DNA from: a bacterium
GTDB taxonomy: Bacteria > Planctomycetota > UBA1135 > UBA2386
Direction of reading: 5' to 3'
NCBI GenBank assembly: GCA_024743115.1
Contig: JANSXC010000002.1
Coordinates: 38,207 to 102,206 of the forward strand
Length of the DNA: 64,000 nt
The position numbers were made by a program, and so were the translations under genes. How positions within the stretch are numbered: position 1 is the first letter of the stretch; each line of letters opens with the position of its first letter. The notes beneath the pieces were generated by a model. That model saw nothing but the letters and a program-made list of their open reading frames with translations. It was not told where the DNA came from and ran no database searches. Of this stretch, positions 13,315 to 61,131 are shown one piece after another.

Positions 13315-14451
13315 ATGACCCGAGCTATCGCCAACTGTTCTCTTGCTCTCGCCGCCACGCTCGCGACCCTCGCCGCCCTGCCCGGCCAGAACGTCGGCCT
13401 CGCGCTCACGAACGGCATCGACGGCTACGTCGAGATCCCGTACGACCCAGCGCTCGTGCCCGCGACCGGCATCACGCTCGAGGCCTGGATTACCTATGAC
13501 GACAGCACGCTGCCGGCCGGTTGGCGCTATCCGACGGTCGTGCGGCAGAACATTACGCCGCAGCAGGAGGCCTACTTCTTGCGTATCGAGGCCGGCAACT
13601 CGGGGCAGCGGACGTTGCGCTGGAAGGTCGTGACCCAAGGCAACGGTGCGGCGGTCTGTGACTGGTCGTTCACGCCCGGCCAGCTCCTGACCTGGACGCA
13701 CGTCGCGGCGACCTACGACGGCAACACTGCGGCGCTCTACATCGACGGCAATCAGGTCAGCACCGCCCCGGCGAACGGCCAACCCCTCTGGGATCGCGGT
13801 GGCGAGCTGCGCATCGGCAAGGGCGATGACTCCGGTGGCCCGATCGAGGTCTGGAACGGCGAGATCGACGAGGTGCGGCTGTGGCCGTTCGCGCGGTCGG
13901 CGGCCGAGATCCAGCACGACAAGGACTTCGCGTTGGCGCTCGTGCCGGGGGCGGTTTCGACGTGGAACCTGGACGGTCACACGCTCGACACCTCCAACAA
14001 CCTGTTCGGCAGTGCGATCGGTGCTGCGAACTTCCTGAACAACTCGCTCGTGCTGCCGTTCTTGCCGCTCGCATCGGGCGTCGAGGTCGGCACCGGCACC
14101 GCCGGCTGTGGCCCGTTCCACATCACGTTCGGCAGCCTGCCGCAGGCGGGCAACCTCGACTTCCAACCGGTGTGCACCGGGGCGCCGCCCAACGCGCCGA
14201 CATTCCTCGCGATCGCGTTCCAGACCGCGGCGACGCCGCTGGCGATCGCGGGCATCGAGTTCTGGCTCGATCAGGGCTCCTCGGTGCTCGTGCTGTCGAC
14301 GACGGACGGCGCCGGGGTGTCGCGCCATCCCGCACCGTTGCCCGCCTGGTTGCCGGTCGGCCAGCAGCTGGCGTTCCAGTACGGCTTCGTCGATGGCTGT
14401 GGCAGTCAGGGAGTCACGGCGAGCGCGGCGCTCGAAACCCTGTGTCAGTAA
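13315..14451 (+). CDS. Secreted LamG (concanavalin A-like lectin/glucanase) domain protein with shared C-terminal module
   Basis: 378-aa ORF with a signal peptide (...LATLAALPGQ). LamG pattern (LEAWITYDD...WTHVAATYDGNTAALYIDG...GEIDEVRLW). The tail belongs to the shared C-terminal module (see findings). Confidence 0.85.
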   Translation: MTRAIANCSLALAATLATLAALPGQNVGLALTNGIDGYVEIPYDPALVPATGITLEAWITYDDSTLPAGWRYPTVVRQNITPQQEAYFLRIEAGNSGQRTLRWKVVTQGNGAAVCDWSFTPGQLLTWTHVAATYDGNTAALYIDGNQVSTAPANGQPLWDRGGELRIGKGDDSGGPIEVWNGEIDEVRLWPFARSAAEIQHDKDFALALVPGAVSTWNLDGHTLDTSNNLFGSAIGAANFLNNSLVLPFLPLASGVEVGTGTAGCGPFHITFGSLPQAGNLDFQPVCTGAPPNAPTFLAIAFQTAATPLAIAGIEFWLDQGSSVLVLSTTDGAGVSRHPAPLPAWLPVGQQLAFQYGFVDGCGSQGVTASAALETLCQ

Positions 14452-14497
14452 CCCCGCAGCGGTTACTCCGACCCAGAAGCTGCGCGCGGCGGCGTGA

Positions 14498-16787: not shown

Positions 16788-18104
16788 ATGCGACGAACGA
16801 CCCTGCTGCTTCTGACGACCGCGCTCGTGCCCCTCGCCCCGGCGCAGGAACCGGCCGAGTCGGAGCGACCGGGGCAGCAGCAGACGGCTGGCCAAGAGAC
16901 GGCTGGGCAGCAGGGGGAATCGCCGGTGATCCGGGTGCGGTCGGCCTCGGCCGGGACGATCCTCGACATCGCGGGGGGATTCGGGTTCCGCGACGATCTG
17001 CCCGACCTGCCTGAGGACGGGCACTACGAGCTGGTCGTGGACGCGGATCGCGAGGTGGCGGTCCGCGCCGGCTCGGGCGCGGTCGGCTACCTCGAGTTCC
17101 GGGTCGATCCGGGCGCGGTGATGGAGCTGTTCGCGGATGAGATCAAGAGCGTCAAGGGCATCGCTCAGGGTGTTGCGGTCATGGCGATGACCCAGCAGGG
17201 ATTCTCGGCGAAGGAGGCGACCGGCATGATGCGGTCGCTGTTCGAGTTTCCGTACCTGCTCGAGAGCGCCGAACTCGTGCTGCCGCGGAACCCGAAGCAG
17301 TTCGAGGACCACGGGCTCGAGATGCGGGTGGCGGTGACGGCGCAGCCGGGCACCCAGGTCGCGGCACTCTTCGAGCGGCTGGTGCCTGCTGGTGAAGGTG
17401 CACCGGCGCTGCCGCGGGACGACGAGCGGCTGCTCGGAATGCAGCTCTCACTCGCGAACGATGCACTCGGGCCGCTGATGGGGCCGTTCCTCGACTTCGG
17501 CCTGTCGTTCAGCTACACGGACCCGGAGGCGCGCAAGCAGGCCAAGAAGCTCTCGAAGGAACTCGTCGAGCTCTACGACGGTGGCTTTGCGTTCGCGATC
17601 TCGAAGGGCATGCAGATGGAAGCGCTCTACGGCTTCTTCGATTCCGACAAGCTCGCGACCAAGCTTCACAGCGACGAATACCATCAGATGATGGTCGCGC
17701 AGCAGCCCGGCCGTGACATCGAGGTGGAGATCGAGCGGTCGGCGTTCGAGCACCGGGGTTCGAAGTTCATGCGCATGACCATGTACAACGACGGACCGCC
17801 GAACCCGATGATGCCGAACGACGAGATGAATCAGTTCTTCGGTGCGGTCGGTCGCTACCTCGTGATGGGCGGTTCCAAGGAGCGGGCGCAGAAGCTCGCC
17901 GAGACGATTGCCGAGCAGCAACTGAAGCGCGGCGCCCTCGCCGGTGGCGCGATCATGACGCTCGAGATGAACCTCCTGGGCTGGCTCGACGCGATGAAGC
18001 AGGCGATGCCCGTCGGGCGTGCAGCCAAGAAGATGCCGAAGCGCGTCAACCTGCAGCTGTTCGCGAAGCAGCGCACGCTCAGTGCGGTGATCCGAGCGCA
18101 GTGA
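16788..18104 (+). CDS. Secreted hypothetical protein
   Basis: The ORF is open from 16383. ATG 16788 yields a signal peptide, MRRTTLLLLTTALVPLAPAQ. Balanced composition (K, E, F, M-rich). No family recognised. Confidence 0.7.
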   Translation: MRRTTLLLLTTALVPLAPAQEPAESERPGQQQTAGQETAGQQGESPVIRVRSASAGTILDIAGGFGFRDDLPDLPEDGHYELVVDADREVAVRAGSGAVGYLEFRVDPGAVMELFADEIKSVKGIAQGVAVMAMTQQGFSAKEATGMMRSLFEFPYLLESAELVLPRNPKQFEDHGLEMRVAVTAQPGTQVAALFERLVPAGEGAPALPRDDERLLGMQLSLANDALGPLMGPFLDFGLSFSYTDPEARKQAKKLSKELVELYDGGFAFAISKGMQMEALYGFFDSDKLATKLHSDEYHQMMVAQQPGRDIEVEIERSAFEHRGSKFMRMTMYNDGPPNPMMPNDEMNQFFGAVGRYLVMGGSKERAQKLAETIAEQQLKRGALAGGAIMTLEMNLLGWLDAMKQAMPVGRAAKKMPKRVNLQLFAKQRTLSAVIRAQ

Positions 18105-19325: not shown

Positions 19326-20564
19326 TCACTCGTAGAGCAGGAACGGCTTGCGCCGCATCTGGAACACGCGCAGGTCACTGCGCCAGCTCGCGATGATCTC
19401 TTCCGCGGCCTTGCCGGCGAGGATCGCGCTCGCGGCGTCGGCGTCGCGCAGCAGCCAGTCGAGGCGCTTGGTGTCCCAGTCGTCGCGGTAGAGCTTGCGC
19501 AGCGCGCACAGCAGGTGGATGCCAGTGCGCACGGGTTGAAACGCGCGCCAGTTCGTGATCGCGATGTCGACGCCGCCGCACTTGGTACCCTTGTGCTTGC
19601 TGCTGTTCGGCGTGAAGCGGATCGGGACGAACGTCACGCCCGGGAGGTTCTGCGCGCGCAGTTCGGCGGCGAGCTCACGGCCGTCGATCCACGGTGCGCC
19701 GACGACCTCGAACGGCGTGTCGGTGCCGCGGCCGACGGACACGTTGGTGCCCTCGACGAGGCCGATGCCGGGGTAGAGCAGCGCCTGCGTCAGGCAGCGC
19801 ATGTTCGGTGACGGATTGACCCACAAAAGACCGGTGCGATCCCAGAGGTCGGCGCGGTGCCAGCCCGTGCACTGCACGACCTCGAGCTCGGCCTGGATGC
19901 CGTCCTCGCCGGCGATCATGCGCGCGAGTTCGCCCGCGGTCATGCCATGGCGCAGCGGCACGCGGTGGGCGGCGATGAAGCTGCGGCGATCGTCCGCGAG
20001 GACGGGGCCGGCGATCGCGATGCCGCCGATCGGGTTGGGGCGATCGAGCACGACGAAGCGCAGATCGTGCTTGGCGGCGGCCTCGAGCGCGTTCCGCATC
20101 GTCGAGACGTAGGTGTAGAACCGGCAGCCGATGTCCTGGATGTCGAACACGAGCGTGTCGACGCCCTGCAGGGATTCCGGGGTCGGCGTGCGGTGCTTGC
20201 CGTAGAGCGAGAACACGCGCAGGCCGGTCGCGCGGTCGCGCGAGTCGCCGACCTTCTCGTCGAGGATGCCGTCCCAGCCGTGTTCGGGCGAGAAGAGCGT
20301 GACGACCTCGACGCCCTTGGCGTTCGCGAGCACGTCGACCGTGCGCCGACCGTCGATCGTGCGGCCGGTGTGGTTGGTGATGATGCCGAGCTTGCGGCCG
20401 CGCAGGCGGGCGCAGTCCTCGGCCGCGAGCACGTCGATGCCGGTCTGCACCTGGGCAGTCGCCTGGTCGGTCGCGAGGGCCGACACGGCGAGCAGCGTGC
20501 ACGCTGTGGCACTGGCCCGGCGTGCGAGTCGGTTCGAGAGTTGGCGGAGGGCTGGCAGCTTCAT
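19326..20564 (-). CDS. DUF1343 / NamZ-like exo-beta-N-acetylmuramidase family protein, exported paralog
   Basis: 412-aa ORF with an N-terminal signal peptide (...CTLLAVSALATDQATAQ). Motifs LVFDIQDIGCRFYTYVST and LDRPNPIGG. The ATG overlaps the stop of the SSS gene (ATGA). Confidence 0.88.
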   Translation of the reverse strand: MKLPALRQLSNRLARRASATACTLLAVSALATDQATAQVQTGIDVLAAEDCARLRGRKLGIITNHTGRTIDGRRTVDVLANAKGVEVVTLFSPEHGWDGILDEKVGDSRDRATGLRVFSLYGKHRTPTPESLQGVDTLVFDIQDIGCRFYTYVSTMRNALEAAAKHDLRFVVLDRPNPIGGIAIAGPVLADDRRSFIAAHRVPLRHGMTAGELARMIAGEDGIQAELEVVQCTGWHRADLWDRTGLLWVNPSPNMRCLTQALLYPGIGLVEGTNVSVGRGTDTPFEVVGAPWIDGRELAAELRAQNLPGVTFVPIRFTPNSSKHKGTKCGGVDIAITNWRAFQPVRTGIHLLCALRKLYRDDWDTKRLDWLLRDADAASAILAGKAAEEIIASWRSDLRVFQMRRKPFLLYE

Positions 20565-22090: not shown

Positions 22091-23083
22091 TCAGTAGAGC
22101 CGCAGTCGCAGGGCGTTGCTGGTTGCGAACGGCAGCGGCGAGGTGGCGTTGAGGTCGAGTGGCACCATCTGGATCGCGAGGAAGACGTTCGCGAGCCCCG
22201 TGGAGTTGGGGATCGCGAAGCCGAGGCGCGCGTGGCCGGCGTAATCGGGGCCGCGGGTGTCGCCGTTGCCCGCAAACAGCAGCAGCGTGCTGATCGAGTC
22301 GGTGTTCTGCATGCAGGCCGGGTTGAGGCCTGGAACCGCGAGGGGGGTGAAGTTCGGGTTGCCGCCGATCACCGCGAACACTGCACCGCCGGGCGGATTG
22401 CCGCACGTCTCGTAGGCGAACCGGGAGTTGCCGATCGTCGGTGGCTCGTTGGTGAAGGCGGTCGGAACTTCGCCCGTCGACAGCGGGCAGCCCTGCCCTT
22501 GCGTCGTCACGCCCTGATCGTCGAGCAGATTGCAGAACAGCTGGAACTTCGGCGCGCTCGTCGTGGCGGCGCTCCAGGCGCCGGTGCCCGCGCGGCTCAC
22601 GTGAGTGAGGTTGAAGGTGCCGTTCGGTTCCGTGATGAGTTGGGTGAAGCCGGGCTCGACGAACACGAACCAGGTCGGGACGCCGGGCTGCAGGGTGACG
22701 GCGCGATCGAAGTTCGCGCCGCGCCAGCCCGCGGCTCGTGTGTTGTCGATCTCCCAGACGCCGCCGCCGAGGCGGCTACCCGGTTCGCCGTTGACCTCGT
22801 CCCAGAGTTCGACGGCGAGGAACGCGTCGCCCGGATAGGAGGCGTTCCTCGTGAAGACCTTGGCGGCCTGAACCGTGAAGTTGGCGTTGGCCGGCGGCGT
22901 GAACCGCCAGGCGAAGTAGTTCTGACCGGCGAGGCTGTACGACGACACCGCGGTCGACGAACTCGTCGTGGTAGCGTTCGCAGCCAGGCACGGTGCGGTC
23001 TGGGCGCTGAGCGCGGCCGGCGTCGTGGCTAGCAGGACGGTCAGGAGGGACAGGCGGATCTCGGGTCGCATCGAACTTCTCAC
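22091..23083 (-). CDS. Secreted hypothetical protein with shared C-terminal module
   Basis: 330-aa ORF with a signal peptide (...LLATTPAALSAQ). The C-terminal ~125 aa end in ...FLAIQMVPLDLNATSPLPFATSNALRLRLY, matching the shared module. Confidence 0.75.
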   Translation of the reverse strand: MRSSMRPEIRLSLLTVLLATTPAALSAQTAPCLAANATTTSSSTAVSSYSLAGQNYFAWRFTPPANANFTVQAAKVFTRNASYPGDAFLAVELWDEVNGEPGSRLGGGVWEIDNTRAAGWRGANFDRAVTLQPGVPTWFVFVEPGFTQLITEPNGTFNLTHVSRAGTGAWSAATTSAPKFQLFCNLLDDQGVTTQGQGCPLSTGEVPTAFTNEPPTIGNSRFAYETCGNPPGGAVFAVIGGNPNFTPLAVPGLNPACMQNTDSISTLLLFAGNGDTRGPDYAGHARLGFAIPNSTGLANVFLAIQMVPLDLNATSPLPFATSNALRLRLY

Positions 23084-25381: not shown

Positions 25382-26314
25382 GTGATCCAGCTCCGTCCTC
25401 GTGATCTCCCGAGTCTCCTCGCCCTGATCAGCACCGCCATCACCTCGGCGACGGCCCAGGTCGAGATCCACGATCCCCGCGGGCGAGAACTCGTCGTCGC
25501 CGACGCGAAGATCGAACGCCTCGGTGCCGGCATGAAGTTCGTCGAGGGGCCGGTGTGGCTGCCGAACGAACGTGCGCTCGTGTTCTCCGATATCCCGCGC
25601 GGCAAGCTGATGCGATGGACCGCCGCGACCGGCGTAGCGGAGTGGCGTGACAGCGAACAGAGCAATGGCAATACGCTCGATCGCGAGGGACGCCTGCTCT
25701 CCTGCGAGCATCGCGCGCGGCGCATCGTGCGGTACGGCGCCGATGGCGAACCGACCGTGCTGCTCGAACGCTTCGACGGCAAGCGGCTCAACTCGCCGAA
25801 CGATCTGGCGGTGCGGTTCGACGGCAGCATCTGGTTCACGGATCCGCCGTACGGACTGCGAGGTCGCGCGCCCGAGCAGCCGGGGAACTTCGTCTACCGG
25901 CTCGAGCCGAAGACCGGCGCCGTGACCGTCATGCAGCGCGAGTTCGACAAACCGAACGGCATCTGCTTCGCGCCGGACCACGTCCGGATTTACATCGCGG
26001 ACAGTGGCGAGAAGCAGCGGGTCGGGGCGTTCGCGGTGCAGGCGGACGGCGCGCTGAGCCGGCCACTGTTCTGGCTGGCGGGCGGAGCGGACGGCATGCG
26101 GTGCGACCGGGCCGGCAACCTCTGGCGCACGACGCGTTCCGGCGTGCTGGTGCATTCGCCACGCGGCGAGCTGCTGGCGACGATTCGGTTGCCTGAGGTG
26201 CCCGCAAACTGCGCGTTCGGAGGCGCCGATGGCAAGAGCCTGTTCGTCACCGCGCGGACCTCGCTCTATCGCGTGCCGGTGCAGATCACTGGCGCTGCCT
26301 GCCCGCCCCGCTGA
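25382..26314 (+). CDS. SMP-30 / gluconolactonase / LRE-like beta-propeller protein, exported
   Basis: 310-aa ORF from a GTG 1 nt after the previous stop. Signal peptide ...ISTAITSATAQ. SGL-domain pattern (GNTLDREGRLLSCEH...NSPNDLAVRFDGSIWFTDPPYG). Confidence 0.85.
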   Translation: MIQLRPRDLPSLLALISTAITSATAQVEIHDPRGRELVVADAKIERLGAGMKFVEGPVWLPNERALVFSDIPRGKLMRWTAATGVAEWRDSEQSNGNTLDREGRLLSCEHRARRIVRYGADGEPTVLLERFDGKRLNSPNDLAVRFDGSIWFTDPPYGLRGRAPEQPGNFVYRLEPKTGAVTVMQREFDKPNGICFAPDHVRIYIADSGEKQRVGAFAVQADGALSRPLFWLAGGADGMRCDRAGNLWRTTRSGVLVHSPRGELLATIRLPEVPANCAFGGADGKSLFVTARTSLYRVPVQITGAACPPR

Positions 26315-27247: not shown

Positions 27248-30073
<2,826 letters not shown>

Positions 30074-30393: not shown

Positions 30394-31530
30394 TCAGAAG
30401 AGCACGAGTGGCGCGGGGTTGCTGACCCGCACGAGGTTGGTGCCGAGGCCGTATGTGGCGCCCTGCCACATGATCTGCACGCCGAGAACCCAGGGTAGGT
30501 TCGGCACCGGGAACGAGCTGGTGAGCGCGGCGCCGCTGCCCGTCACCTGCACGGCTGCGGACTCGAGCCAGAACGGATCCGGAATGCCCGCGAAGAACTC
30601 GGGTTGATCGGGGAAGCCGACGAACAGCACGCCCATCTCGCCGGGCTGGAGGCCCAGGTTGCCGAATACGTTGCCCGTCGCGGGGGTCCTCCCGGTGGTG
30701 AGGGGCGGTACCCGGCGGGTCTCGACGGTGATGCCGGGTTCGACGGGGCCGGTCGAGCCCAGCAACTGGACGCTCGGATCGAAGACCGCGACACCGTCAC
30801 CGACCAGGCCGGGCTGAACGGTCGAGGCGTGCGATTGCAGCGTGGTGTCGAGGTTGAGAACGAGAGTGCTCTCGATCATGAATCCGACGCCGGTCGGGAA
30901 GGCGCTCGCGGGATTGCTGTCGAGGGTGCAGTCCGTCATGTGGACTCGGCTGCCGCCGATCCGGAAGCAGAAGTTTTCCGACGTCAGGTTGCAGTGATGC
31001 AGTGCGACGTTGCTGTTGTAGCTCTCGAGCGGCGACACGAAGAATCCGGCGCCGCGCAGGTCGCAGGCGCGGAGGTAGACGTGTTCGCAGTTCGTCGCCC
31101 GGACTCTGCCGCGTTGGATCGTCGAGGGCGAGTTCGTGCTGCAGTCCTCGATGAAGATCGGTCCGGCGGAGTCGCGGCAGCTGATCGCGACGCTGCCGAA
31201 CACGATGTCGAACCGGAAGCCGCGGATGCTGACGAACTGGGTCGGGCCGAGGTCGACGACTTCGATCGGCGGAAACTGGAACAGGTTGCCGAGCACGGAC
31301 ACGCCGGCCTCGGCGTCCACGGTGAGGCTCTTGCCGACGACGCGGAAGTTGTCGTAGGTGCCGGCGCGGACCCGGATCACGGCGCCATCCGGTGCGGCCG
31401 CCGTGGCCGTCGCGATCGAGGTGTAGTTCGTGCCGGGGCCGTTGCTGGCGTCGACGATGAACACCTGGGCGGGCAGGAACGCGGCGAGGAGCATTGCCGC
31501 CGCGAACGGGGAGACTGGGGGGCTGACCAT
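30394..31530 (-). CDS. Secreted right-handed beta-helix (pectin-lyase-fold-like) protein with shared C-terminal module
   Basis: The ORF is open to 31572. Internal ATG 31530 gives the signal peptide MVSPPVSPFAAAMLLAAFLPAQ and avoids overlap with the divergent gene. Repetitive beta-helix-like segments. C-terminal module ...WVLGVQIMWQGATYGLGTNLVRVSNPAPLVLF. Confidence 0.75.
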   Translation of the reverse strand: MVSPPVSPFAAAMLLAAFLPAQVFIVDASNGPGTNYTSIATATAAAPDGAVIRVRAGTYDNFRVVGKSLTVDAEAGVSVLGNLFQFPPIEVVDLGPTQFVSIRGFRFDIVFGSVAISCRDSAGPIFIEDCSTNSPSTIQRGRVRATNCEHVYLRACDLRGAGFFVSPLESYNSNVALHHCNLTSENFCFRIGGSRVHMTDCTLDSNPASAFPTGVGFMIESTLVLNLDTTLQSHASTVQPGLVGDGVAVFDPSVQLLGSTGPVEPGITVETRRVPPLTTGRTPATGNVFGNLGLQPGEMGVLFVGFPDQPEFFAGIPDPFWLESAAVQVTGSGAALTSSFPVPNLPWVLGVQIMWQGATYGLGTNLVRVSNPAPLVLF

Positions 31531-31547
31531 GTCGTAGAGTCTAGCGA

Positions 31548-42578: not shown

Positions 42579-43367
42579 TCAGGCGCGAACGAACTCGATG
42601 ACGCGATCGAACGCCGCTGCCGACTCGAGCAGCAGGCTATGTCCGGCGCTGGCGATGCACTCGAACTGCGCGTTCGAGATCAGCGTGGCGGTGGCCTCGA
42701 CCTCCGCGGGCAGCGTCAGATGGTCCTCGGCGCCCGCCAGGCACAGGGTCGGCCACTGCACCTGGTCCGCGAGTCCGGCGCCGTCGAAGGCCAGCAGCGC
42801 GCGTACCTGGGCACGCATGAACGCGCGCGATTCGGGGCTCGGTTTCGTGCTCCGGACGATGTTGTCGACGACGTCGGGCTTGTTGTTGAGGAACGTCTCG
42901 CCGAACAGAAACGGCGCCGTGAGGTCGCCGAGCAGGTCGCCGGGCACGTCCGTGCAGAGCCGTTCGAACCAGCGATAGATCCGCTGACTGCGCGGCGTCT
43001 GCGGCGCGGCGCTGCAGAGCATCACGAGGCGGCTGGCGTGTTCGGAGTGGGTCGCCGCGGCCTGGAGTGCGACTTTGCCGCCGAGCGAGGTGCCGACGAG
43101 CGTGACGGGTTGCGGCAGCTCGGCCGCGACCGCGAGGACGTCGAGCGCTGCCTGCTGGAAGTCGTAGATGCCGCCCGGCAACGGGCCCGACGGGTCGAGG
43201 CCGACGGGGTCGATGGCGCAGCACGTGAAGCCGGCACGGACGAACCGGCGCGGCAGCGTTCCGAACAGGCGGGCGCCGGACCCCAGGCCCGGCACGAGCA
43301 CGATGCCCGGGCCGTCACCGTCGCGGCTGTAGTGGATCGAGCGCGAAGCACGCGTGAGGTTCGGCAT
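42579..43367 (-). CDS. Alpha/beta-fold hydrolase
   Basis: The ORF is open to 43454, but that start overlaps the upstream gene, so ATG 43367 is preferred. Motifs VLVPGLGSG and nucleophile elbow GTSLGG. Confidence 0.8.
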   Translation of the reverse strand: MPNLTRASRSIHYSRDGDGPGIVLVPGLGSGARLFGTLPRRFVRAGFTCCAIDPVGLDPSGPLPGGIYDFQQAALDVLAVAAELPQPVTLVGTSLGGKVALQAAATHSEHASRLVMLCSAAPQTPRSQRIYRWFERLCTDVPGDLLGDLTAPFLFGETFLNNKPDVVDNIVRSTKPSPESRAFMRAQVRALLAFDGAGLADQVQWPTLCLAGAEDHLTLPAEVEATATLISNAQFECIASAGHSLLLESAAAFDRVIEFVRA

Positions 43368-43398: not shown

Positions 43399-44487
43399 TC
43401 AGCGCTCGAGGATGTAGGCTTTCTCGACCTCCGGCAGCATCGTGAGCACGACATCCGCCGTGATCTCGAAGCTCCTGGGGTCGAGGTTCTCGAGCGTGTC
43501 GGCGGGGGTGTGCCAGGTCACATTGCCGTTGAGGTCAATGAGGTCGACCGCCGGGATGCCCACCTCCATGAACGGCACGTGGTCATCGGCGGCACCCTCC
43601 GCCCGCTGGAAGAAGTGCTTGTCGTGGCCGCTGGCGACCGCGGCGCTCCAGAGGATCTGACGCAGGCGGGTCGTGGAGTAGAGCTCGTCCTGAATGTGCA
43701 GATTCTTGCCGCCGACCATGTCGAGCAGGATCAGCGCCGAGATGCGACCTTCTTCGCCGAGGACCTGGGCTTCGCGGTGGCGTTTGACGTAGCGCTTGCT
43801 GCCGAACAGCGCGCGCGCGGCTTCGTTCCAGTTCCAGTCGAGGCTCTCTTCGCCGTCGAAGAACACGAGCTCGATCGTGGCCTCGCGCTTCGTTGCGAGC
43901 AACGTCGGCACGAGCTCGAGCAGCAGCGCGACCGCGCTCGCACCGTCGTTGGCGCCGACGAAGTCGAAGTTGTGTCGTTGGTCCGGATGCTCGATCGTGC
44001 ACTTGGTGTCGTGATGGCACGCGAGCAGGATGCGGTCGTCACGTTTGCCGGGGATCGTCGCGCGCAGGTTCGTGAACGTGATCAGCTCCTTGCGATCCGT
44101 CCACGTGTCGCGGATGACCTTCAGCCCCGCGGCCTGCAGCTCGGTCTCGATGTAGCGCAGCTGCTGCGTCCACCCGGGCATACCCGCGGGCTTGGCGGAG
44201 TAGCGCGGGCCGAATCCCACGATCTTCTCGGCGCGCGCGAACGCGCGTTCGCCAAACCCTTTCGGCGCGCGGATCGCGGTCATCGGCAGTTTGACCCGGC
44301 GGTCGATCGCGGGGTGGCTGCGAAGCTGACCGGGCGACTGGCCGGATTCCTGGGTGCCGTTCTGTGGCGTGCCGGCGGTGCCCGTGCCGTCCTGGGGCGT
44401 GCCCCATGAGTTCTGCGAGGCTGCGGCCCCGAAGCAGGCCGCGAGCACGGCCGCGATCGCGATTCCGACGACGACACTCGTGCGCAT
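43399..44487 (-). CDS. M28-fold glutaminyl-peptide cyclotransferase-like lipoprotein (paralog 1)
   Basis: 362-aa ORF with a lipobox (AAVLAAC). Motifs LLACHHDTK, FVGANDGASAVALLLEL, VFFDGEES, LFGSKRY, LILLDMVGG, DDHVPFMEVGIPAVDLID and WHTPADTLENLD are collinear with mammalian-type QC. Confidence 0.8.
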   Translation of the reverse strand: MRTSVVVGIAIAAVLAACFGAAASQNSWGTPQDGTGTAGTPQNGTQESGQSPGQLRSHPAIDRRVKLPMTAIRAPKGFGERAFARAEKIVGFGPRYSAKPAGMPGWTQQLRYIETELQAAGLKVIRDTWTDRKELITFTNLRATIPGKRDDRILLACHHDTKCTIEHPDQRHNFDFVGANDGASAVALLLELVPTLLATKREATIELVFFDGEESLDWNWNEAARALFGSKRYVKRHREAQVLGEEGRISALILLDMVGGKNLHIQDELYSTTRLRQILWSAAVASGHDKHFFQRAEGAADDHVPFMEVGIPAVDLIDLNGNVTWHTPADTLENLDPRSFEITADVVLTMLPEVEKAYILER

Positions 44488-44517
44488 GATGAGCTCCAGC
44501 GTTGGGTGATGCGGCGG

Positions 44518-45645
44518 CTACTTGCCGCGCTTCTTGCGCTTGCCCTGACAGAACTCCGCGAGCGCCGGGAGCGCGGCGACGACGAGGTTCCCCGCGGTCG
44601 CGAGCGCTTCGGGGTCGACCGCGTCGAGGTTGTCGTCGGGCGTGTGCCACCAGCGTTCGTAGCGATCGTCCTGGGGTTGGCCGTCCTGTGGGATGCGGCG
44701 CGCGAAGTCGATCAGCAGCACGGAAGGAATGCCGTAGTTCTGGAAGATCTCGTGGTCGTCCTTGGTGCCCCACTTGAGCCCGCGGCGGGCGAACTCGGCG
44801 ACCTCCTCCTTCTTCGGAAACTCGTAGAGCAGCTGTCCGGGCCCGACGCCGTAGCCGATCGCCTTTGCGGCGTCGGCGAAGATGTCCTGCAGCGCAGGCA
44901 CGGAGTTACCGTCCTTGTCGATCTTGAAGTTCTTGCTGCCGATCAGATCGAGCAGCACGAACGCCTTGACGCGCGGCTTGATCTTCTTCTCGTGAAGCAT
45001 CTGGCAGAACGCCTTGCTGCCGAGCAGCGCCCGCTCGTCGTTCCACGTCCAGTCGATCGATTCCTCGGCGTCGATCCAGTAGAGCCAGACGTTGACGTCG
45101 GGGCGGTTCTTCGGGTCCGAGAGATGGCGCGCGAGCTCGATCAGCACGGCCGGTCCGCCGCCGCCGTCGATGGCGCCGACGAACGGGAAGTTGTGCGCTT
45201 CGTCGCTGTGGCCTATGGCGACCTTGGTGTCATAGTGAGCGCCGATCATCAAGATGGGGCCCTTGACGGGATCCGGCCCGTCGATCGCGACGTAGAGGTT
45301 GCGGATGAGCTTCTTCTCCTTGTCGTGCATGAGCTCGTGCCGCTGCGGCTTCAGGCCCATGGCGGAGAGTTGGCCGGTGATGTAGTCGGCGGTCTTGCCG
45401 AGCGCATCCGATCCGAACGGACGCGGTCCGATCTCGACGAACTTCTGCACGTGGACGTATGCCTCGCTGCCGGAGATCGGGCCCGACGGGCCGCTGCAGC
45501 ACGGCATGAGTGCCAGGCTGCCGAGCGCGAGCGTGGAGAGCAGGGCCGGCAGGACATGCCGCCGGCGCTGGGTTGGCGAAGAGGAACGATTCGCTGCATC
45601 ACGACCGGACATGCTCGCACCGTAACCCAGCACGCGGTTCGCCAC
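44518..45645 (-). CDS. M28-fold glutaminyl-peptide cyclotransferase-like lipoprotein (paralog 2)
   Basis: 375-aa ORF with a lipobox-like LALMPCC. Motifs IGAHYDTK, FVGAIDGGGGPAVLIELA, WIDAEES, LLGSKAF, VLLDLIGS, DDHEIFQNYGIPSVLLID, WHTPDDNLDAVD. Confidence 0.78.
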   Translation of the reverse strand: MANRVLGYGASMSGRDAANRSSSPTQRRRHVLPALLSTLALGSLALMPCCSGPSGPISGSEAYVHVQKFVEIGPRPFGSDALGKTADYITGQLSAMGLKPQRHELMHDKEKKLIRNLYVAIDGPDPVKGPILMIGAHYDTKVAIGHSDEAHNFPFVGAIDGGGGPAVLIELARHLSDPKNRPDVNVWLYWIDAEESIDWTWNDERALLGSKAFCQMLHEKKIKPRVKAFVLLDLIGSKNFKIDKDGNSVPALQDIFADAAKAIGYGVGPGQLLYEFPKKEEVAEFARRGLKWGTKDDHEIFQNYGIPSVLLIDFARRIPQDGQPQDDRYERWWHTPDDNLDAVDPEALATAGNLVVAALPALAEFCQGKRKKRGK

Positions 45646-47828: not shown

Positions 47829-47840
47829 GAGAACCGAACC

Positions 47841-48944: not shown

Positions 48945-48948
48945 CAGC

Positions 48949-50646: not shown

Positions 50647-53148
50647 ATGCCGAAACCACTTGTCCGTTGGGCGACGAAACCGCTCGCACGGATCGCTCTC
50701 CCGCTCGTGCTCTCGACGACCGCACTAGCTGTCCTCACACCGCTCGCAACCTCCCAGTGCGCGACGGACTGGGTCCCGGGCGATGGCTACCCCGGCGTCC
50801 ACGGCAACATCTACGAGGCGGTCTGGTGGGATCCCGATGGTGCGGGTCCACGCGGTGAAATCCTCGTCGTCGGTGGCAACTACCTGCGGATCTTCACGGT
50901 TGCCGCGGCCAACCTGGCGAGCTGGGACCCCACGACGGGCGAGTGGGCAGCGTGGCCGCCGGGGCCGAGCAATGACGTGTTCTCGCTGGCCGTGATGCCG
51001 AACGGGGATCTCGTTGCCGGAGGGTGGTTCACGCACATCGCGGGGCAACGGGTCACGAACATAGCTCGCTTCAACGGTGCGACCTGGTCGCCGCTCGGGG
51101 GCGGAGTCACGGGCCCGGCGAACGCCTTCGTCAACGCGATCGTGCCGTTGCCGAATGGTGACCTCATCGCGGCAGGCAAGTTCGACATGGCGGGTGGCGT
51201 GCCGTGCAACTCGATCGCGCGCTGGGATGGCTCCAGCTGGTCGCCGCTCGGGGCCGGCATCAACGGCACGGTGCAGGCCGCGGCGCGCGCGCCGAACGGC
51301 GACCTCTTCGTCGGCGGCAACTTCTTCATGGCAGGCGCGCTTGTGGTCAACTCCGTTGCGCGCTGGGACGGTTCGCAGTGGCATACGCTCGGGACCGGGG
51401 TCGGCAGTGGCGGGGTCGACCGGCTGCTCGTCGAGCCGAACGGTGACGTCCTGGTCGGCGGTGGGTTCACGACCGCCGGCGGCCAGGCCATTGGCTACCT
51501 GGCGCGGTGGGACGGCAGTGGTTGGAGCGCGCTCGGGGCCGGTCCGGGCCAGCGGGTGCGGAGCCTGCGGCCGCTGACGAACGGTGATCTGCTGGCGGGC
51601 ACGCAGGCTGGCGCCGTGATGCGTTGGAACGGGCAGGCGTGGTCGCCCCTCGGCGGCGGGCTCGGTACGGCCCCGCCGACCGCGTTGGCGGAGCTGAGCG
51701 GCGGCGACGTGCTGGCGCTCGGCTATCCGTTCCCGCCCTTTCGCGGCGCCGCGCGCTGGAACGGTGCGACCTGGCGTTCGCTGCCAAGAGGGTTCGACGA
51801 ACGGATCTATACCATCGGGCATGACGCGGCCGGCGACCTGGTCGTCGGTGGTCACTTCTTGAGCTACGACAACGACCCGTCCACTTCGTTCCTGGCTCGG
51901 TTCGACGGGGCCGCCTGGTCGGGGATCGGTGGCGGTGTCCGAGGCCCGGTGCACGCCACGGCGGTGCTGCCCAACGGCGACCTCGTGGTGGCCGGGGACC
52001 TCTCGTCCGCGGGCGGGCGCGCCGTGCAGAAGATCGCCCGGTGGGATGGCGCGGCCTGGCATCCGATGGGGAGTGGTTTCGGTTTCCGCGTCAACGATCT
52101 CGCGGTGCTGCCGAATGGCGATCTCGTCGCGGCGGGCGCGTTCGTCACGAGTGGCTCGCGCTCCATGCGGCGCGTGGCGCGCTGGGATGGCGTCGATTGG
52201 CGGTCCATGGCGGGCGGTATGGACGCCGAGGTGCGCGATCTGACCGTCATGCAGAACGGGCACCTGCTGGCAGGGGGCTACTTCTCCCAGGCCGGCGGCG
52301 GCTTCGCGCCGTTCGTTGCGGTCTGGGACGGCACCGCGTGGGGGCTTCTGGGAAACAACAACGGCAGCTGGCCCGCGTGGGAGGTGGACACGGTCACGCA
52401 GCTTCGGAATGGCGACGTGATCGTCGGCGGTCGCTTCCAGTCGGCCGGTGGCGTGTCGTGCAACAACGTCGCGAGGTTCGACGGCGCGAACTGGTCGTCG
52501 GTCGGTCCGGGTGTCGGCTACCGCGCGGTCACCGTTCAGGAACTGCCCAACGGCGACCTGGTGCTCGCCGGATCCTGGGAGACGATCCGCTGGGACGGCG
52601 TCCAGGCCACGCCGTTCGCGACCATCGGGATTCAGGCGATGGCCATGACGAAGTCCGGCGACCTCGCGGTTGGGGGTTCCTTCGTCGTCGACCACCCCAA
52701 CGTGTCGGCCTACTTCGGCCGGATCCGGACCAGCTGTCCCGCGGATGTGCGGTCGCTGCCGACCGGCTGTGTCGGCAGCACGGGTCCCGTTGAACTGGCC
52801 GCGGTTGGACTGCCGTGGGTCGGGGCCGACTTCACGTCGCGCGCCACGGGCTTCACCCCCGGTTCGATCGGTGTTGCGCTGCTCGGGCTGACGTCACCGG
52901 ATATCCCGTGGACCTGGCTCTGGCCCAATACGGGGCCGGGCTGCCAGCAGCTGGCGAGTCAGGAGGCGATCCTGCTGACCTTGCCGCAAGGCTCTGCCGC
53001 GGGCTTCTCGTTCACGATTCCGAACGATCAGGCGTTCGTCGGTCTGCAGCTGTATCACCAGTTCCTGCACTTCGAGGTCGACGTCAACAACCACCTCGGT
53101 CGGCTGAGCGCTTCGAACGCGCTCGAGCTCGTGATCGGCGCGTTCTAG
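50647..53148 (+). CDS. Secreted repeat (beta-propeller-type) protein, about 13 x ~47-aa ARWDG..W..LG repeats, with shared C-terminal module
   Basis: 833-aa ORF with signal peptide ...LTPLATSQC. Repeats such as LPNGDLIAAGKFDMAGGVPCNSIARWDGSSWSPLGAGINGTV. The tail is ...FVGLQLYHQFLHFEVDVNNHLGRLSASNALELVIGAF. Confidence 0.85.
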   Translation: MPKPLVRWATKPLARIALPLVLSTTALAVLTPLATSQCATDWVPGDGYPGVHGNIYEAVWWDPDGAGPRGEILVVGGNYLRIFTVAAANLASWDPTTGEWAAWPPGPSNDVFSLAVMPNGDLVAGGWFTHIAGQRVTNIARFNGATWSPLGGGVTGPANAFVNAIVPLPNGDLIAAGKFDMAGGVPCNSIARWDGSSWSPLGAGINGTVQAAARAPNGDLFVGGNFFMAGALVVNSVARWDGSQWHTLGTGVGSGGVDRLLVEPNGDVLVGGGFTTAGGQAIGYLARWDGSGWSALGAGPGQRVRSLRPLTNGDLLAGTQAGAVMRWNGQAWSPLGGGLGTAPPTALAELSGGDVLALGYPFPPFRGAARWNGATWRSLPRGFDERIYTIGHDAAGDLVVGGHFLSYDNDPSTSFLARFDGAAWSGIGGGVRGPVHATAVLPNGDLVVAGDLSSAGGRAVQKIARWDGAAWHPMGSGFGFRVNDLAVLPNGDLVAAGAFVTSGSRSMRRVARWDGVDWRSMAGGMDAEVRDLTVMQNGHLLAGGYFSQAGGGFAPFVAVWDGTAWGLLGNNNGSWPAWEVDTVTQLRNGDVIVGGRFQSAGGVSCNNVARFDGANWSSVGPGVGYRAVTVQELPNGDLVLAGSWETIRWDGVQATPFATIGIQAMAMTKSGDLAVGGSFVVDHPNVSAYFGRIRTSCPADVRSLPTGCVGSTGPVELAAVGLPWVGADFTSRATGFTPGSIGVALLGLTSPDIPWTWLWPNTGPGCQQLASQEAILLTLPQGSAAGFSFTIPNDQAFVGLQLYHQFLHFEVDVNNHLGRLSASNALELVIGAF

Positions 53149-53240: not shown

Positions 53241-55739
53241 ATGCCGAGACCTGTCGCCGTTCGTCTGATCGCTGCCACGATGCTCTGTCTGCCGCCGGCC
53301 ACCGCACAGTGCACGACGGGATGGGCCGTGGGGAATACGCCGGGCACTGGCCACGCCGTCGACGATGCCGCCTGGTGGGACCCGGACGGCAGCGGCCCGC
53401 TCGGTGAGGTGCTCGTGGTGACCGGCCGCTTCTCGGTGGCCGGCAACCAGTCGGTGCAGGGGCTCGCCGTATGGGATCCGGGCGTGGGGGAGTTCGTGCC
53501 GTTCGCGGGTTCTACGAGTCCGTCTCCCCACGGTGGTTCCCTCAGCGTCGGCCCCGCAGGGGAGCTCGTGTTCGGTGGGCGCTGGCAGTGGACCGGGAGT
53601 GGCTGGCAGGACTTCGGCGCGCCGCCGTGGTTCCTCGCGCCGGGCCTCGCGGCGCACCTGCCGAACGGCGATGTGGTCACGGCGCACACCTACTTCTACC
53701 CCTACTGTGGACTGTGCGGCCTGGTCACGTATGCCGACGTGCAGGTATGGAACGGCACGACCTGGACACGTCTGCCGGGGTTCCCCGGTTACCGCTACAA
53801 CCAGGCGACCGTTTCGGATCTGGCGGTCTTGCCGAACGGCGACGTAGTCGTCGTCGGCGCCTTCGCCGGCGGTAACGTAGCCGTCTGGGACGGGACGTCG
53901 TGGAGTAGCCTCGGCAGCGGCCTCAACGGCTATGTCCGAGCGGTCGACGTGATGAGCAACGGTGACCTGGTGGCCTGCGGTTCGTTCACACTGCCTGGTG
54001 GCGACGGCGTCGCGCGCTGGAACGGTACGAGCTGGGTGCCGGTCGGGGGCGGCGTCACCGGTTCGCCGTTGGGCGCCGTGGACCTCGAGGTGATGCCATC
54101 CGGCGATCTCGTGGTCGCGGGTTACGTGACGACTGCGGGGGGCGCGCCGGTGCAAGGCATCGCGCGTTGGGACGGCGCCTCGTGGTCGTCGATCGACGGC
54201 ACGGCGCGTGACCATTTCGGCGTGCGCAAGGTTCTGGCCGCGGCCAGCGGCGAGCTCTTCGCGGGCGGGTCGTTCCGATCGATCGGCGGCGCGGCCGCGC
54301 TCCACGTTGCGCGCTACGACGGTTCGGCCTGGCATGCGTTGGCGCCGGGCTTCGACGGCGCGATCTACGGCGCGCTCACGCGCAGGAACGGCAATCTCGT
54401 GGTCGCTGGCCGGTTCGAACTCGCCGGCACCCAGGCCTGTCGTGGCATTGCCGAATGGGACGGGACGAATTGGTCTCCGCTCGGTAGCGGCCTCGTCGAT
54501 GCCAGCGCCGTCGTGCCCGAGTTCGCGCTGCTCGAATTGCCGAGCGGCGATCTGCTCGTCGGTGGCGACGTGTCGCAAGCCGGTGGTGTCGCGGTCAACC
54601 ACATCGCGCGCTGGGACGGGGCGGCGTGGTCGGCGGTCGGCGCGGGCTTGCCGTACGCCGTGCGTTCTCTGAGCCTCGCCCAGAACGGCGACGTCATCGC
54701 CGGCGTTGGCGACTACCCGGGTCCAGGTGAAGTCTGGCGTTTCGACGGTGTCGCGTGGACGCGGCTCGGACCGACCGCCGACGGCGTCGTCAATGTGGTT
54801 CTGCATCTGCGGAACGGCGATCTGCTCGCGGGTGGGCGTTTCATGAACTTCGGCGGGGCGCCGGTGAGCCATCTCGCGCGGTGGGACGGCACCGCCTGGA
54901 GTGCCTACGCGGGTGGCCGATTCGCCGCCGTGACGGCGTTGCTCGAGGCCGCGAACGGGGATCTGATTGCGGGCGGCGAGTTCCCGGTCGCGGGCCTCAT
55001 CTCGCGCTGGGACGGCACTGCATGGTCGCGTTTCGGGCTCGGGCTCGAGAACTCGTCGGGACCGGCGGCCGCGGTGAACGGGCTGGTCGAGTTGCCCAAC
55101 GGCGATCTGCTGGCCACGGGATCGTTCGAGCGCAGTCCGGGCGCGAATGCGTGGACGCGAGGGGTCGCCCGTTGGGACGGCACCGAGTGGCTGCCGGTTG
55201 ACGACGGGCTCAACGACGACTGCGAGGCGGTGACCGTGATGCCGGACGGCAGCGTGGTCGTGGGGGGCAGGTTCACCGCCACGGTCACCAAGCCCGCGGC
55301 GTTCCTGGCGCGTCTCGCGACGGATTGCCCGGCGTCCGTTGCAACGTTGCCGACTGCCTGCGTCGGTCCGGCGGGCCCGGTCGAACTCGCGGCGGCGGCA
55401 TTGCCGTGGGTGGGCACGACCTTCCGTTCGACGGCTACCGGCTTCGCAGCCAACTCGCTCGGCGTCTCGCTGCTCGGGCTCGGCTCACCCGGCGTACCCT
55501 TGAACTGGCTGTGGTCGAACACGTTGCCCGGTTGCGAGCAGCTCGCCAGTCACGAAGCGATTCAGCTGGTGTTGCCGCAGGGCGGCGCAGCGAACTACGC
55601 GTTCACGATTCCGGCCGATCCCGTGTTTGCCGGGCTCGAACTCTTCCATCAGTTCTTGCACTTCGACCTCGACGCCAACAACAACCTGCTCACGCTGAGT
55701 TCGTCGAACGGTCTGCAGCTGGTGCTCGGCGCCTTCTAG
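53241..55739 (+). CDS. Secreted repeat (beta-propeller-type) protein, tandem paralog of 50647..53148, with shared C-terminal module
   Basis: The ORF is open from 52815. ATG 53241 gives the signal peptide MPRPVAVRLIAATMLCLPPATAQC. Same repeat architecture as its neighbour. The tail is ...FAGLELFHQFLHFDLDANNNLLTLSSSNGLQLVLGAF. Confidence 0.85.
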   Translation: MPRPVAVRLIAATMLCLPPATAQCTTGWAVGNTPGTGHAVDDAAWWDPDGSGPLGEVLVVTGRFSVAGNQSVQGLAVWDPGVGEFVPFAGSTSPSPHGGSLSVGPAGELVFGGRWQWTGSGWQDFGAPPWFLAPGLAAHLPNGDVVTAHTYFYPYCGLCGLVTYADVQVWNGTTWTRLPGFPGYRYNQATVSDLAVLPNGDVVVVGAFAGGNVAVWDGTSWSSLGSGLNGYVRAVDVMSNGDLVACGSFTLPGGDGVARWNGTSWVPVGGGVTGSPLGAVDLEVMPSGDLVVAGYVTTAGGAPVQGIARWDGASWSSIDGTARDHFGVRKVLAAASGELFAGGSFRSIGGAAALHVARYDGSAWHALAPGFDGAIYGALTRRNGNLVVAGRFELAGTQACRGIAEWDGTNWSPLGSGLVDASAVVPEFALLELPSGDLLVGGDVSQAGGVAVNHIARWDGAAWSAVGAGLPYAVRSLSLAQNGDVIAGVGDYPGPGEVWRFDGVAWTRLGPTADGVVNVVLHLRNGDLLAGGRFMNFGGAPVSHLARWDGTAWSAYAGGRFAAVTALLEAANGDLIAGGEFPVAGLISRWDGTAWSRFGLGLENSSGPAAAVNGLVELPNGDLLATGSFERSPGANAWTRGVARWDGTEWLPVDDGLNDDCEAVTVMPDGSVVVGGRFTATVTKPAAFLARLATDCPASVATLPTACVGPAGPVELAAAALPWVGTTFRSTATGFAANSLGVSLLGLGSPGVPLNWLWSNTLPGCEQLASHEAIQLVLPQGGAANYAFTIPADPVFAGLELFHQFLHFDLDANNNLLTLSSSNGLQLVLGAF

Positions 55740-60095: not shown

Positions 60096-60120
60096 CTCTG
60101 GTTGGTCGAACGCTCCACTG

Positions 60121-61131
60121 TCATCTCGCTGCCGGGGTGCTCGGTGTCGGGCGAATCGAGCGGAACCTGGCTGCGCGGGTACGGCGCTTGGCGAGTTCGA
60201 GGATCGAGGACGGCACCCGGTTCTTCAGCGAGCCGGCCGAGTGGCCGGCGGCGAGGAGTCCCTCGACAGCGCAGAGCTTCACCTTCGGGCACGAAGTCGA
60301 GCCCAGCAGGTTGGCCAGAGCTGGCGCGCCCTGGGCCGCGGGCAGCGCACGCAGCAGTTCGGCGGCTCGCAGCTCGACGGCCGGATCGCGTTTCAGGCTG
60401 ACCGGGAGGCGCGCCGTCACACGCGCCGGATCCGTGCGGCTCAAGCCCGAACGCAGCAGTCGGGCGCGGTCTTTGTGCGACTCCGCGAGGTAGAGCGCGA
60501 GGGCGCGGTCGAGCAATGCCGGGTCACGGGTCTCGAGCGTGACATCGAGCAGCGCGGCGGCGGTCGTGTGACCGCGGGCGACGGCGCGTTCGAGTGCCGT
60601 CACGACCCGCTGCTTGTCGGCCGCGGCGAGCTGGACGCCGCGATACTCTGCAAGTGCATGCGCGGCGTCGAGCGCGATACGTTGGTTGCTGTGGTCCAGG
60701 TGCCGGGCCAGCAGCGTGGCGCGCGTTTGTTGCGTCGACGCGGACAGCAGCGCCGCGACGTGTTCGCGGAGTTCGAGGGTCGGCTCGAGGACGCCGCGGC
60801 CGCCGCCAAACGGATGCAGGCCCGTGGAACGGCGCTCGAGGAACAGCAGTCGGCGCTCGCCGGCGCTGAGCGCGAACAGGCTGCGGCCGCAGCATGCGCC
60901 GGCGGGTTCGAGTAGCGCGAATGTGTTACCGATCGTGCCTCGCAGGCGCGAGTCCGTCTGCCAGGCGACGCGTTTGAAGCCTGGTACCGGTTCGGTCACG
61001 CTCGTGACCGTGGCGACGACGATGACCGCCGCCCGTTCGCTGGCGCGAGCGAGCGTCGTGGCCTGTTGTTGCGGGTTCGCGGCCGCCGCGAGCGCGAGGC
61101 CGGTGAGAACGGCGAGGTGCGCGTGGTTCAT
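60121..61131 (-). CDS. Exported helical-repeat (HEAT-like) protein, function unknown
   Basis: 336-aa ORF with signal peptide MNHAHLAVLTGLALAAAANPQQQ. Leu/Ala/Arg-rich helical repeats. The ATG overlaps the stop of the upstream gene (ATGA at 61128-61131). Confidence 0.6.
   Translation of the reverse strand: MNHAHLAVLTGLALAAAANPQQQATTLARASERAAVIVVATVTSVTEPVPGFKRVAWQTDSRLRGTIGNTFALLEPAGACCGRSLFALSAGERRLLFLERRSTGLHPFGGGRGVLEPTLELREHVAALLSASTQQTRATLLARHLDHSNQRIALDAAHALAEYRGVQLAAADKQRVVTALERAVARGHTTAAALLDVTLETRDPALLDRALALYLAESHKDRARLLRSGLSRTDPARVTARLPVSLKRDPAVELRAAELLRALPAAQGAPALANLLGSTSCPKVKLCAVEGLLAAGHSAGSLKNRVPSSILELAKRRTRAARFRSIRPTPSTPAAR

Follow-up and report, generated by a model that had tools for sequence, protein, structure and literature searches.

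A glutamine at the predicted first mature position of essentially every Sec-type signal peptide in a planctomycete genome window that also encodes two glutaminyl cyclase homologues

Is the exposure of glutamine at the mature N-terminus of exported proteins, the so-called Q-rule, a habit of the Bacteroidetes, or does it also exist elsewhere in the bacteria? This question is raised by a stretch of 64,000 nucleotides from the assembly GCA_024743115.1 (contig JANSXC010000002.1, positions 38,207 to 102,206; hereafter the window, in whose own numbering all coordinates are given). A sequence-only reading had noticed here that twelve proteins with a classical signal peptide carry Gln directly after the predicted cleavage site (+1), and that two candidate glutaminyl cyclases, which could convert such a Gln into pyroglutamate, lie at 43399..45645. 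It had also stated correctly that a Q-rule together with a lipoprotein cyclase of the M28 fold is known from Bacteroidetes (PMC5837995, PMC10653852, PMC7948796). The rule was defined in 2018 for that phylum, with Gln at +1 in 71% on average and up to 88% (Bochtler 2018, PMC5837995), in an analysis whose scope did not include the Planctomycetes (PMC5837995), and a follow-up in 2023 stated that it occurs "exclusively in the Bacteroidetes phylum" (Szczesniak 2023, PMC10653852). The evidence compiled below, taken from sequences and predicted structures, indicates that a Q-rule very probably operates in Planctomycetota as well, far from the Bacteroidetes.

The gene map of the window was derived from codon-position composition followed by a self-trained codon-usage caller, which gave 44 genes, and all N-termini were inspected. 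A first caller based on the length of open reading frames (ORFs) and the G+C content at third codon positions was replaced, because it chose a shadow ORF at 19812-21119 and missed the gene for NamZ. All twelve signal peptides are present at the positions that had been listed for them. On the forward strand (a slash marks the predicted cleavage site) they belong to a LamG/concanavalin-like protein (13315..14451, LAALPG/QNV), a protein with no family match (16788..18104, signal peptide MRRTTLLLLTTALVPLAPA/QEP, i.e. PLAPA/QEP), an SMP-30/gluconolactonase-like protein (25382..26314, TSATA/QVE), a fusion of GH3 with a beta-lactamase fold that starts with GTG (27248..30073, RTATA/QAP), a further protein with no family match (31548..32423, ALLTA/QGE), a protein with a transglutaminase core and an alpha/beta-hydrolase part (38490..40511, ALAPA/QAS) and two tandem paralogues with beta-propeller repeats (50647..53148, PLATS/QCA; 53241..55739, PPATA/QCT). 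On the reverse strand they belong to the exo-beta-N-acetylmuramidase NamZ (19326..20564, DQATA/QVQ) and to three proteins with no family match (22091..23083, AALSA/QTA, start at ATG 23071 or GTG 23083; 30394..31572, AFLPA/QVF, start at ATG 31530 or GTG 31572; 37116..38357, STLTA/QQL).

Every one of the twelve has a short and mostly basic n-region, a hydrophobic core and a small-x-small motif, which is then followed by Gln. When the junctions are aligned on this residue (n=12), position -1 is Ala in ten, Gly in one and Ser in one, while position -3 is Ala in seven and Leu in five, a composition that marks the motif as one of signal peptidase I (SPI). After reading all N-termini of the window we found no clear exported protein of the SPI type that lacks the Gln, leaving aside the protein at 60121..61131 (reverse strand; MNHAHLAVLTGLALAAAANPQQQ, with AAAANPQQQ), which is as ambiguous as had been noted, since Pro precedes its run of Gln and its n-region has neither Lys nor Arg; its orthologues read AIA/QQGATTLA (L004) and LPA/QRE (L006; L numbers denote fetched loci). 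All other hydrophobic N-termini are those of multi-pass membrane proteins (CNNM, a sodium:solute symporter, a Wzy-like protein and others) or of Cys-containing lipobox-like proteins (43399, 44518, 55795), in agreement with the sequence-only reading, which had recognised just these three lipobox proteins as further exported ones. The two beta-propeller paralogues (50647-53148 and 53241-55739, about 830 residues each, with repeats of the Rax2/DUF5122/delta-60 kind) share a predicted mature start Gln-Cys-[AT]-Thr-x-Trp, in which a Cys stands next to the putative pyroglutamate.

How far such a pattern could arise by chance was estimated with a home-made signal-peptide detector, which demands an n-region, a hydrophobic window of 8 residues and agreement with the -3/-1 rule, ignores +1 except that Pro is excluded there, and was applied identically to the window and 170 fetched loci. 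Two statistics were used: the lenient one counts any permissible site that is followed by Gln, the strict one takes the best site picked blind to +1, and the lenient one was added since the crude +1-blind predictor places cleavage before the Gln in only one half or so of the clear-cut proteins. Under the lenient statistic 11/13 pipeline candidates of the window carry the Gln, or 12/13 when counted by hand (the pipeline lost NamZ to a spurious lipobox match and kept two atypical lipoproteins), compared with 21% of 95 signal-peptide candidates from other lineages (20/95); the binomial probability of 12/13 against this background is p=8e-8. Under the strict statistic Gln immediately follows the chosen site in 6/13 candidates of the window versus 7% in the background (p=1.7e-4). 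Given that Gln accounts for 3.4% of the predicted window proteome, the earlier judgement that such a run is unlikely to be accidental is borne out. Base composition as the cause of the pattern was rejected, because other loci at 65-72% GC give background values; the window itself has 68% G+C.

The pattern extends beyond the window. Loci of relatives were collected through PrkA, encoded next to the two cyclase candidates (five genome loci), through the GH3 protein (21 metagenome loci, at least 59% identity) and, for further ones, through homologues of the first cyclase candidate, QC1, and of UvrC. In the lenient pipeline 29/40 candidates of this clade have the Gln versus 20/95 elsewhere (Fisher p=3e-8), and the difference persists when the window is left out (18/27 vs 20/95, p=2.5e-5); most of the clade's candidates without Gln are lipoproteins of an atypical form or membrane anchors. 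In a curated logo of 38 junctions, -1 is occupied by Ala (35), Gly (2) and Ser (1), and -3 by Leu (16), Ala (16) and Val (3). Furthermore, among orthologues of the window's secreted proteins the Gln is kept while the signal peptides diverge. The 31548 protein has it at the junction in 7/7 copies, window copy included (orthologues in L088, L089, L090, L091, L094 and L136; the L088 copy additionally bears a lipobox-like AVGC), the gluconolactonase-like protein (25382) shows A/Q in 4/4 (window plus L089, L091 and L094), and the non-lipoprotein forms of the GH3 fusion do so likewise in 4/4 (window plus L088, L090 and L136). The junction of the NamZ orthologue in L136 reads ALG/QALAGVDVL. In three relatives the GH3 fusion (L089, 5373; L091, 9992; L094, 9905) has a lipoprotein-type N-terminus, e.g. 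LFAAC/A, in place of an SPI signal with Gln, so that the same protein alternates between two export classes within the clade.

The largest orthologue set comes from the transglutaminase-like protein (38490), in which the hydrophobic core directly precedes Gln in 112 of 120 cluster representatives (56-69% identity). In these 112, position -1 is Ala in 86, Gly in 9, Ser in 9, Pro in 6 and Thr in 2, and the residues past the Gln vary; the remaining 8/120 are truncated or over-extended gene calls, in two of which the Gln is visible. Moreover, about 10 of the 12 secreted proteins from hold-out loci that are non-orthologous to those of the window follow the rule, among them a secretin, a thioredoxin-like, a BNR-repeat and an alpha-2-macroglobulin-like protein. 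Judged from this material, the Gln rule is a property of the clade.

Pro/Gln junctions recur in this material: beside AANP/QQQ of the ambiguous 60121 protein there are LALP/QDP, LPLP/QAA, ALLP/QEP and ATLP/QDA, which come from four homologues of the 38490 protein (P0320, P0328, P0362, P0365). Pro at -1 is normally barred by signal peptidase I. Such junctions would point either to cleavage upstream followed by trimming back to the Gln, or to an unusual peptidase of the clade.

Outside the clade the frequency drops. The lenient statistic is 4/27 for GH3 homologues of 35-45% identity together with their neighbours, 7/37 for loci from other phyla, and 9/31 for loci from other Planctomycetota, the last being slightly above the 11/64 of the remaining control loci. 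Hence the rule appears, in this small sample, not to be common to all Planctomycetota. Single signal peptides ending in A/Q were also seen in Polarisedimenticolia (Acidobacteriota; L036 3336 and L040 3281) and in other Planctomycetota (L012, L033, L047, L051, L063), with examples such as AGLA/QED, APRA/QDL, TLFA/QPV, TVAA/QDE and SSSA/QQP among these distant loci. In very small numbers, this hints at an elevated frequency of +1 Gln in further lineages.

Which organism do these sequences come from? Exact look-ups show that the window proteins correspond to GenBank entries MCR92437xx-38xx with locus tags NXI31_, and that the run SRR18498042 also contains window sequences; look-ups with window proteins that aimed at more of the source contig returned short Logan contigs from SRR18498042 only. 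The nearest genome matches of PrkA (88, 88, 82, 81 and 77% identity) are metagenome-assembled genomes (MAGs) named Planctomycetota or Planctomycetes, and the same is true of every named match of UvrC (66-84%), QC1 (58-72%) and the transglutaminase-like protein (56-69%). Because the best matches of all four proteins are Planctomycetota MAGs, the window is not from Bacteroidetes, as the sequence-only reading had suspected; by these matches the host clade is one of uncultured Planctomycetota, with Bacteroidota excluded. That reading had also recognised no C-terminal domain of the type IX secretion system (T9SS), and our scans concur: neither Pfam nor NCBIfam gave a match to a T9SS C-terminal sorting domain in any secreted window protein.

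Sequence, marker residues and predicted fold of the two candidates that had been pointed out all indicate homologues of type II (animal-type) glutaminyl cyclases. QC1 (43399..44487, reverse strand) matches Pfam Peptidase_M28 with 1.9e-33 and QC2 (44518..45612, reverse strand) with 8.9e-30, and the two share 34% identity. In phmmer searches of the PDB the best matches of both are type II glutaminyl cyclases, for QC1 the entries 7d18 (4e-30) and 7d1b (2e-23), then human isoQC (2e-21), the Porphyromonas enzyme PgQC (3e-21) and human QC (9e-16), while aminopeptidases reach 1e-9 to 1e-7 at best. An AlphaFold2 model of QC1, with a mean predicted local distance difference test score (pLDDT) of 87.3, begins with a helix (residues 3-26), from which a disordered linker leads to the M28 catalytic domain. 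In a Foldseek search of the PDB with this model, ranks 1-28 are all glutaminyl cyclases, in the order 7D18 and 7D1B (E 2.5e-24 and 5.6e-21), Parabacteroides, Porphyromonas, Tannerella, Bacteroides, Drosophila and human, and the first aminopeptidase follows at rank 29; the target-normalised TM-score to PgQC and the Tannerella enzyme TfQC is about 0.8.

The active-site residues fit this assignment. Invariant over 120 QC1 homologues are H158, D181-G182, E213-E214, D256, D301-D302-H303, W325-H326 and D330, of which D181, E214 and H326 are the counterparts of the human zinc ligands D159, E202 and H330, and E213, D256 and D301 those of human E201 (catalytic), D248 and D305. QC2 and its orthologues retain the same motifs (DAEES, LLDLIG, DDH, D-G and W-H). 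A role for D305, and the use of the acid network to discriminate cyclases, were reportedly described by Huang and colleagues in 2021. For human QC a catalytic role is assigned to E201 and D248 (PMC7948796), and two further markers separate cyclases from aminopeptidases: in cyclases the zinc-binding Asp is followed by Gly or Ser (Asn or Asp in aminopeptidases), and the zinc-binding His is preceded by Trp (Tyr in aminopeptidases) (Taudte et al., PMC7948796). Both are in the cyclase state in QC1 (D181-G182, W325-H326) and QC2 (D-G, W-H), and they are conserved in the orthologues. In NCBIfam both proteins stayed below the curated cut-offs of all models, with weak matches to families of aminopeptidases and deacylases only. 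On this evidence QC1 and QC2 are homologues of type II glutaminyl cyclases with a predicted cyclase activity.

Both proteins are expected to sit on the periplasmic side of the membrane, held there by a lipobox or by an anchor. The N-terminal hydrophobic helix of QC1 holds a lipobox-like LAAC, and its homologues share a nearly invariant GLGAC[LI]GAA, a segment that would be either a lipobox or part of an uncleaved signal anchor. The possibility that the N-terminus of QC1 is itself an SPI signal with a Gln site (AAAS/QNS) was rejected, since the homologues conserve the Cys and not the Gln. Between anchor and catalytic domain lies a linker of about 35 residues (residues ~24-60, SQNSWGTPQDGTGTAGTPQNGTQESGQSPGQ; pLDDT <50), rich in Gln, Gly, Thr and Pro, which varies in length and sequence among homologues. 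The lipobox of QC2 is canonical in the orthologues (FAGC, LAAC, LSAC) and atypical in the window, where it reads LMPC-C with two adjacent Cys (LALMPCCSGPSGP). One QC2 gene call, on the Logan contig L084, begins at an internal Met and is 329 residues long, with the signal peptide lost.

The arrangement of the pair is also conserved within the clade. In eight loci of relatives (L002-L005, L165, L166, L168, L170) the tandem QC2-QC1 is found divergent from prkA, a ninth (L006) has one cyclase copy, and none of the other 75 PrkA loci contains the pair. An alpha/beta hydrolase without signal peptide (Hydrolase_4 / S33-like; 42579..43367, reverse strand) lies directly downstream of QC1; it follows QC1 directly in L002, L004, L005, L166 and L168 as well, and lies a few genes off the cyclase pair in L165 and L170, so that it accompanies the pair in every locus with readable downstream genes. 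The operon prkA-DUF444(yeaH)-spoVR at 45798-50508, which throughout this clade points away from the cyclase pair, has a G+C content of 63.5% versus about 68% in its surroundings, with 0.32-0.40 at second codon positions, and PrkA is strongly conserved (88% identity to relatives).

Taking these lines together, we think it likely, with room left for doubt, that this clade exposes Gln at the N-termini of its mature exported proteins, and that cleavage followed by cyclisation through the tethered QC1 and QC2 blocks and thereby protects them. In such a scheme the Sec substrates of SPI would have evolved to present Gln as the first mature residue, with a consensus [A/L]-[P/T/S]-A/Q. The protein would be exported by Sec, signal peptidase I would cut directly before the Gln, and QC1 and/or QC2, as mono-zinc enzymes of the M28 fold facing the periplasm, would then cyclise the N-terminal Gln to pyroglutamate. 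The blocked N-terminus would finally guard exported proteins against aminopeptidases, a protection that has been demonstrated in P. gingivalis (PMC10653852). On a broader reading, which we put forward tentatively and short of calling it probable, proteome-wide pyroglutamylation might have arisen or been retained apart from Bacteroidetes and T9SS, by means of a duplicated type II cyclase, in a lineage of the Planctomycetes-Verrucomicrobia-Chlamydiae (PVC) group.

Several observations weigh against this explanation. The +1-blind predictor picked the Gln site in only 6/13 candidates, with AxA-like alternatives lying upstream, and about half of the proteins have a second acceptable AxA-like site a few residues before the Gln. 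Therefore, the count of 12 of 12 hinges on picking the site beside the Gln, and the exact point of cleavage is what we infer; the choice is supported by the conservation of the Gln in orthologues. Clear exceptions exist as well, such as AVA/NVD (L165) and VAA/EDA (L171), and the window protein 60121 is to be counted among them. Our sampling of the clade comprises less than 0.5 Mb, much of it syntenic with the window, and the phylum assignment depends on the names that submitters gave to their MAGs. With respect to the enzymes, cyclase activity is predicted from 25-30% identity to characterised enzymes. Moreover, the residue aligned with human Phe325 is non-aromatic in QC1: by simple register, the position four residues before the Trp (Trp325 in QC1), equivalent to human Phe325 and PgPhe294, is Gly in QC1 and Tyr in QC2, though the loop may align differently.

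These points give some room to other explanations. The one that survives best, though we regard it as unlikely, is that +1 Gln is selected for a reason other than cyclisation, be it a preference of SPI at P1' or a need of export or sorting, so that the N-terminus stays unmodified or cyclises slowly and spontaneously. Indeed, what the sequence data reveal is just the Gln, and the unusual preference for Leu at -3 and Pro at -2, together with the P/Q junctions, hints at a peptidase specificity that is not of the E. coli type. However, two conserved and anchored cyclase homologues occur in every relative's locus that was sampled around the M28 pair or a close PrkA (with one copy in L006), and the Bacteroidetes, as the sole system studied experimentally, combine the same pattern with complete cyclisation (PMC5837995).

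It is similarly improbable that the Gln is cyclised without the M28 pair, which would then be aminopeptidases or serve the PrkA/DUF444/SpoVR module, with cyclisation left to a type I (beta-propeller) cyclase encoded elsewhere in the genome or to spontaneous chemistry. The constant divergent neighbourhood with prkA, the unreached NCBIfam cut-offs with weak matches to aminopeptidase and deacylase families, and a cyclase search whose scope was the window leave space for this idea. It is at odds with the marker residues specific for cyclases, all of which are present and invariant, and with the nearest solved structures, which are proven or deposited cyclases and include no aminopeptidases; furthermore, anchoring in the periplasm suits exported substrates, and PrkA is cytoplasmic. 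That the pattern is mere chance or a by-eye choice of starts and cleavage sites in a GC-rich sequence full of Ala and Gln codons is effectively refuted, for although several proteins have multiple possible sites of which the Gln-adjacent one was chosen, the lenient null gives p=8e-8, the pattern recurs in independent relatives and non-orthologous proteins, the Gln is retained in 112/120 homologues with variable flanks, and loci of similar GC content lack it.

Apart from the cyclase locus, the window holds between 18161 and 30073 a cluster that resembles a salvage pathway for peptidoglycan and N-acetylmuramic acid. NamZ exo-muramidase is encoded there twice, by paralogues of which one carries a signal peptide and the other lacks it; the cluster also has genes for a MurQ-like SIS protein, a NagB-like deaminase, a sodium:solute symporter and an unassigned membrane protein (24232-25380), as well as for the secreted gluconolactonase-like protein and the secreted GH3 + beta-lactamase-fold fusion mentioned above.

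What would follow from cyclisation of exported proteins by QC1 and QC2? The papers on the Q-rule treat, and partly reject, a link to T9SS and propose protection from the strong periplasmic proteolysis of oral pathogens (PMC5837995, PMC10653852). A free-living clade of Planctomycetota with an equally strict rule, two cyclases and no T9SS signals detected would represent an independent natural replicate, and a second lineage would permit comparative tests of how the rule originates, for example in relation to aminopeptidase load, envelope architecture or cyclase gain. As a strategy, the Q-rule might then recur among bacteria wherever a type II cyclase is anchored in the membrane, and the Pro/Gln junctions would suggest that pyroglutamate also halts N-terminal trimming after imprecise cleavage. 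On the practical side, the rule would matter for signal-peptide predictors, for metaproteomics of these taxa, in which pyro-Glu could be included as variable N-terminal modification, and for the annotation of many genes called 'M28 family peptidase' in Planctomycetota MAGs.

Whether the rule is really undocumented in this lineage, as had been supposed, can be answered only in part with yes. The literature that we searched holds nothing that ties Planctomycetes to cyclases, pyroglutamate or the Q-rule, yet the cyclase of the planctomycete Fimbriiglobus ruber (7D1B) has had its structure in the PDB since 2021, so that enzymes of this type are no novelty in the phylum, and outliers with high +1 Gln beyond Bacteroidetes were noted in 2018, namely Ignavibacterium album with 77%, Chloroherpeton with 55% and a few cyanobacteria with 40-45% (PMC5837995). 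These outliers resemble our clade in their sporadically high +1 Gln; they differ in that they lie in or near the Fibrobacteres-Chlorobi-Bacteroidetes (FCB) group or have intermediate values, and that no specific cyclase genes were linked to them. Seen from the sequences presented here, exclusivity to the Bacteroidetes is too narrow a claim.

Compared with the Q-rule of Bacteroidetes and its enzyme PgQC (PG2157), much is alike: most SPI substrates have Gln at +1, with a fraction here that is at least as high, an anchored periplasmic type II cyclase of the M28 family is present, and lipoproteins are exempt. Essentiality of the cyclase is a further trait by which the Bacteroidetes system is defined. 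In contrast to that system, our clade belongs to the PVC and not the FCB group, T9SS C-terminal domains were not detected in the window, the cyclase is present as a tandem pair of paralogues and not as a single gene, and pyroglutamate formation is what we infer. The zinc-ligand motif is E-E in QC1 and QC2 as in animal cyclases, whereas it is E-D in the bacteroidal ones, and further differences are the long disordered linker and the GLGAC[LI]GAA anchor of QC1 as well as a high frequency of Leu at -3 and of Pro at -2. The cyclases of an Acidobacteriales bacterium (7D18) and of F. ruber (7D1B), which QC1 matches best in both sequence and fold, share only 25-30% identity with it, and the literature searched connects neither of them with a Gln rule that spans the proteome. 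The di-zinc M28 aminopeptidases (S. griseus SGAP, Bacillus YwaD, Aneurinibacillus AP, 2EK8) have the M28 fold and the active-site scaffold in common with QC1 and QC2, but they match far more weakly (1e-9 to 1e-7; Foldseek rank 29 or later) and differ at both marker positions, with Asn or Asp in place of the Gly and Tyr in place of the Trp of QC1 and QC2. Human QC and Golgi isoQC (2AFM, 3PB4) share the fold, the Asp/Glu/His zinc triad, the catalytic Glu, the equivalents of Asp248 and Asp305, and the W-H pair; isoQC even has the 'WHTPADT' of QC1 and is likewise membrane-anchored at its N-terminus. Nevertheless, identity to them is about 24%, the residue after the zinc Asp is Ser in animals but Gly in QC1 and QC2, which side with the bacteroidal cyclases here, and the substrates in animals are hormones and chemokines rather than the exported proteome as a whole. 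As far as these sequences tell, it is the combination of two tandem cyclases, the E-E motif, the QC1 linker, Leu at -3 with Pro at -2 and occasional Pro/Gln junctions that is distinctive of the planctomycete system.

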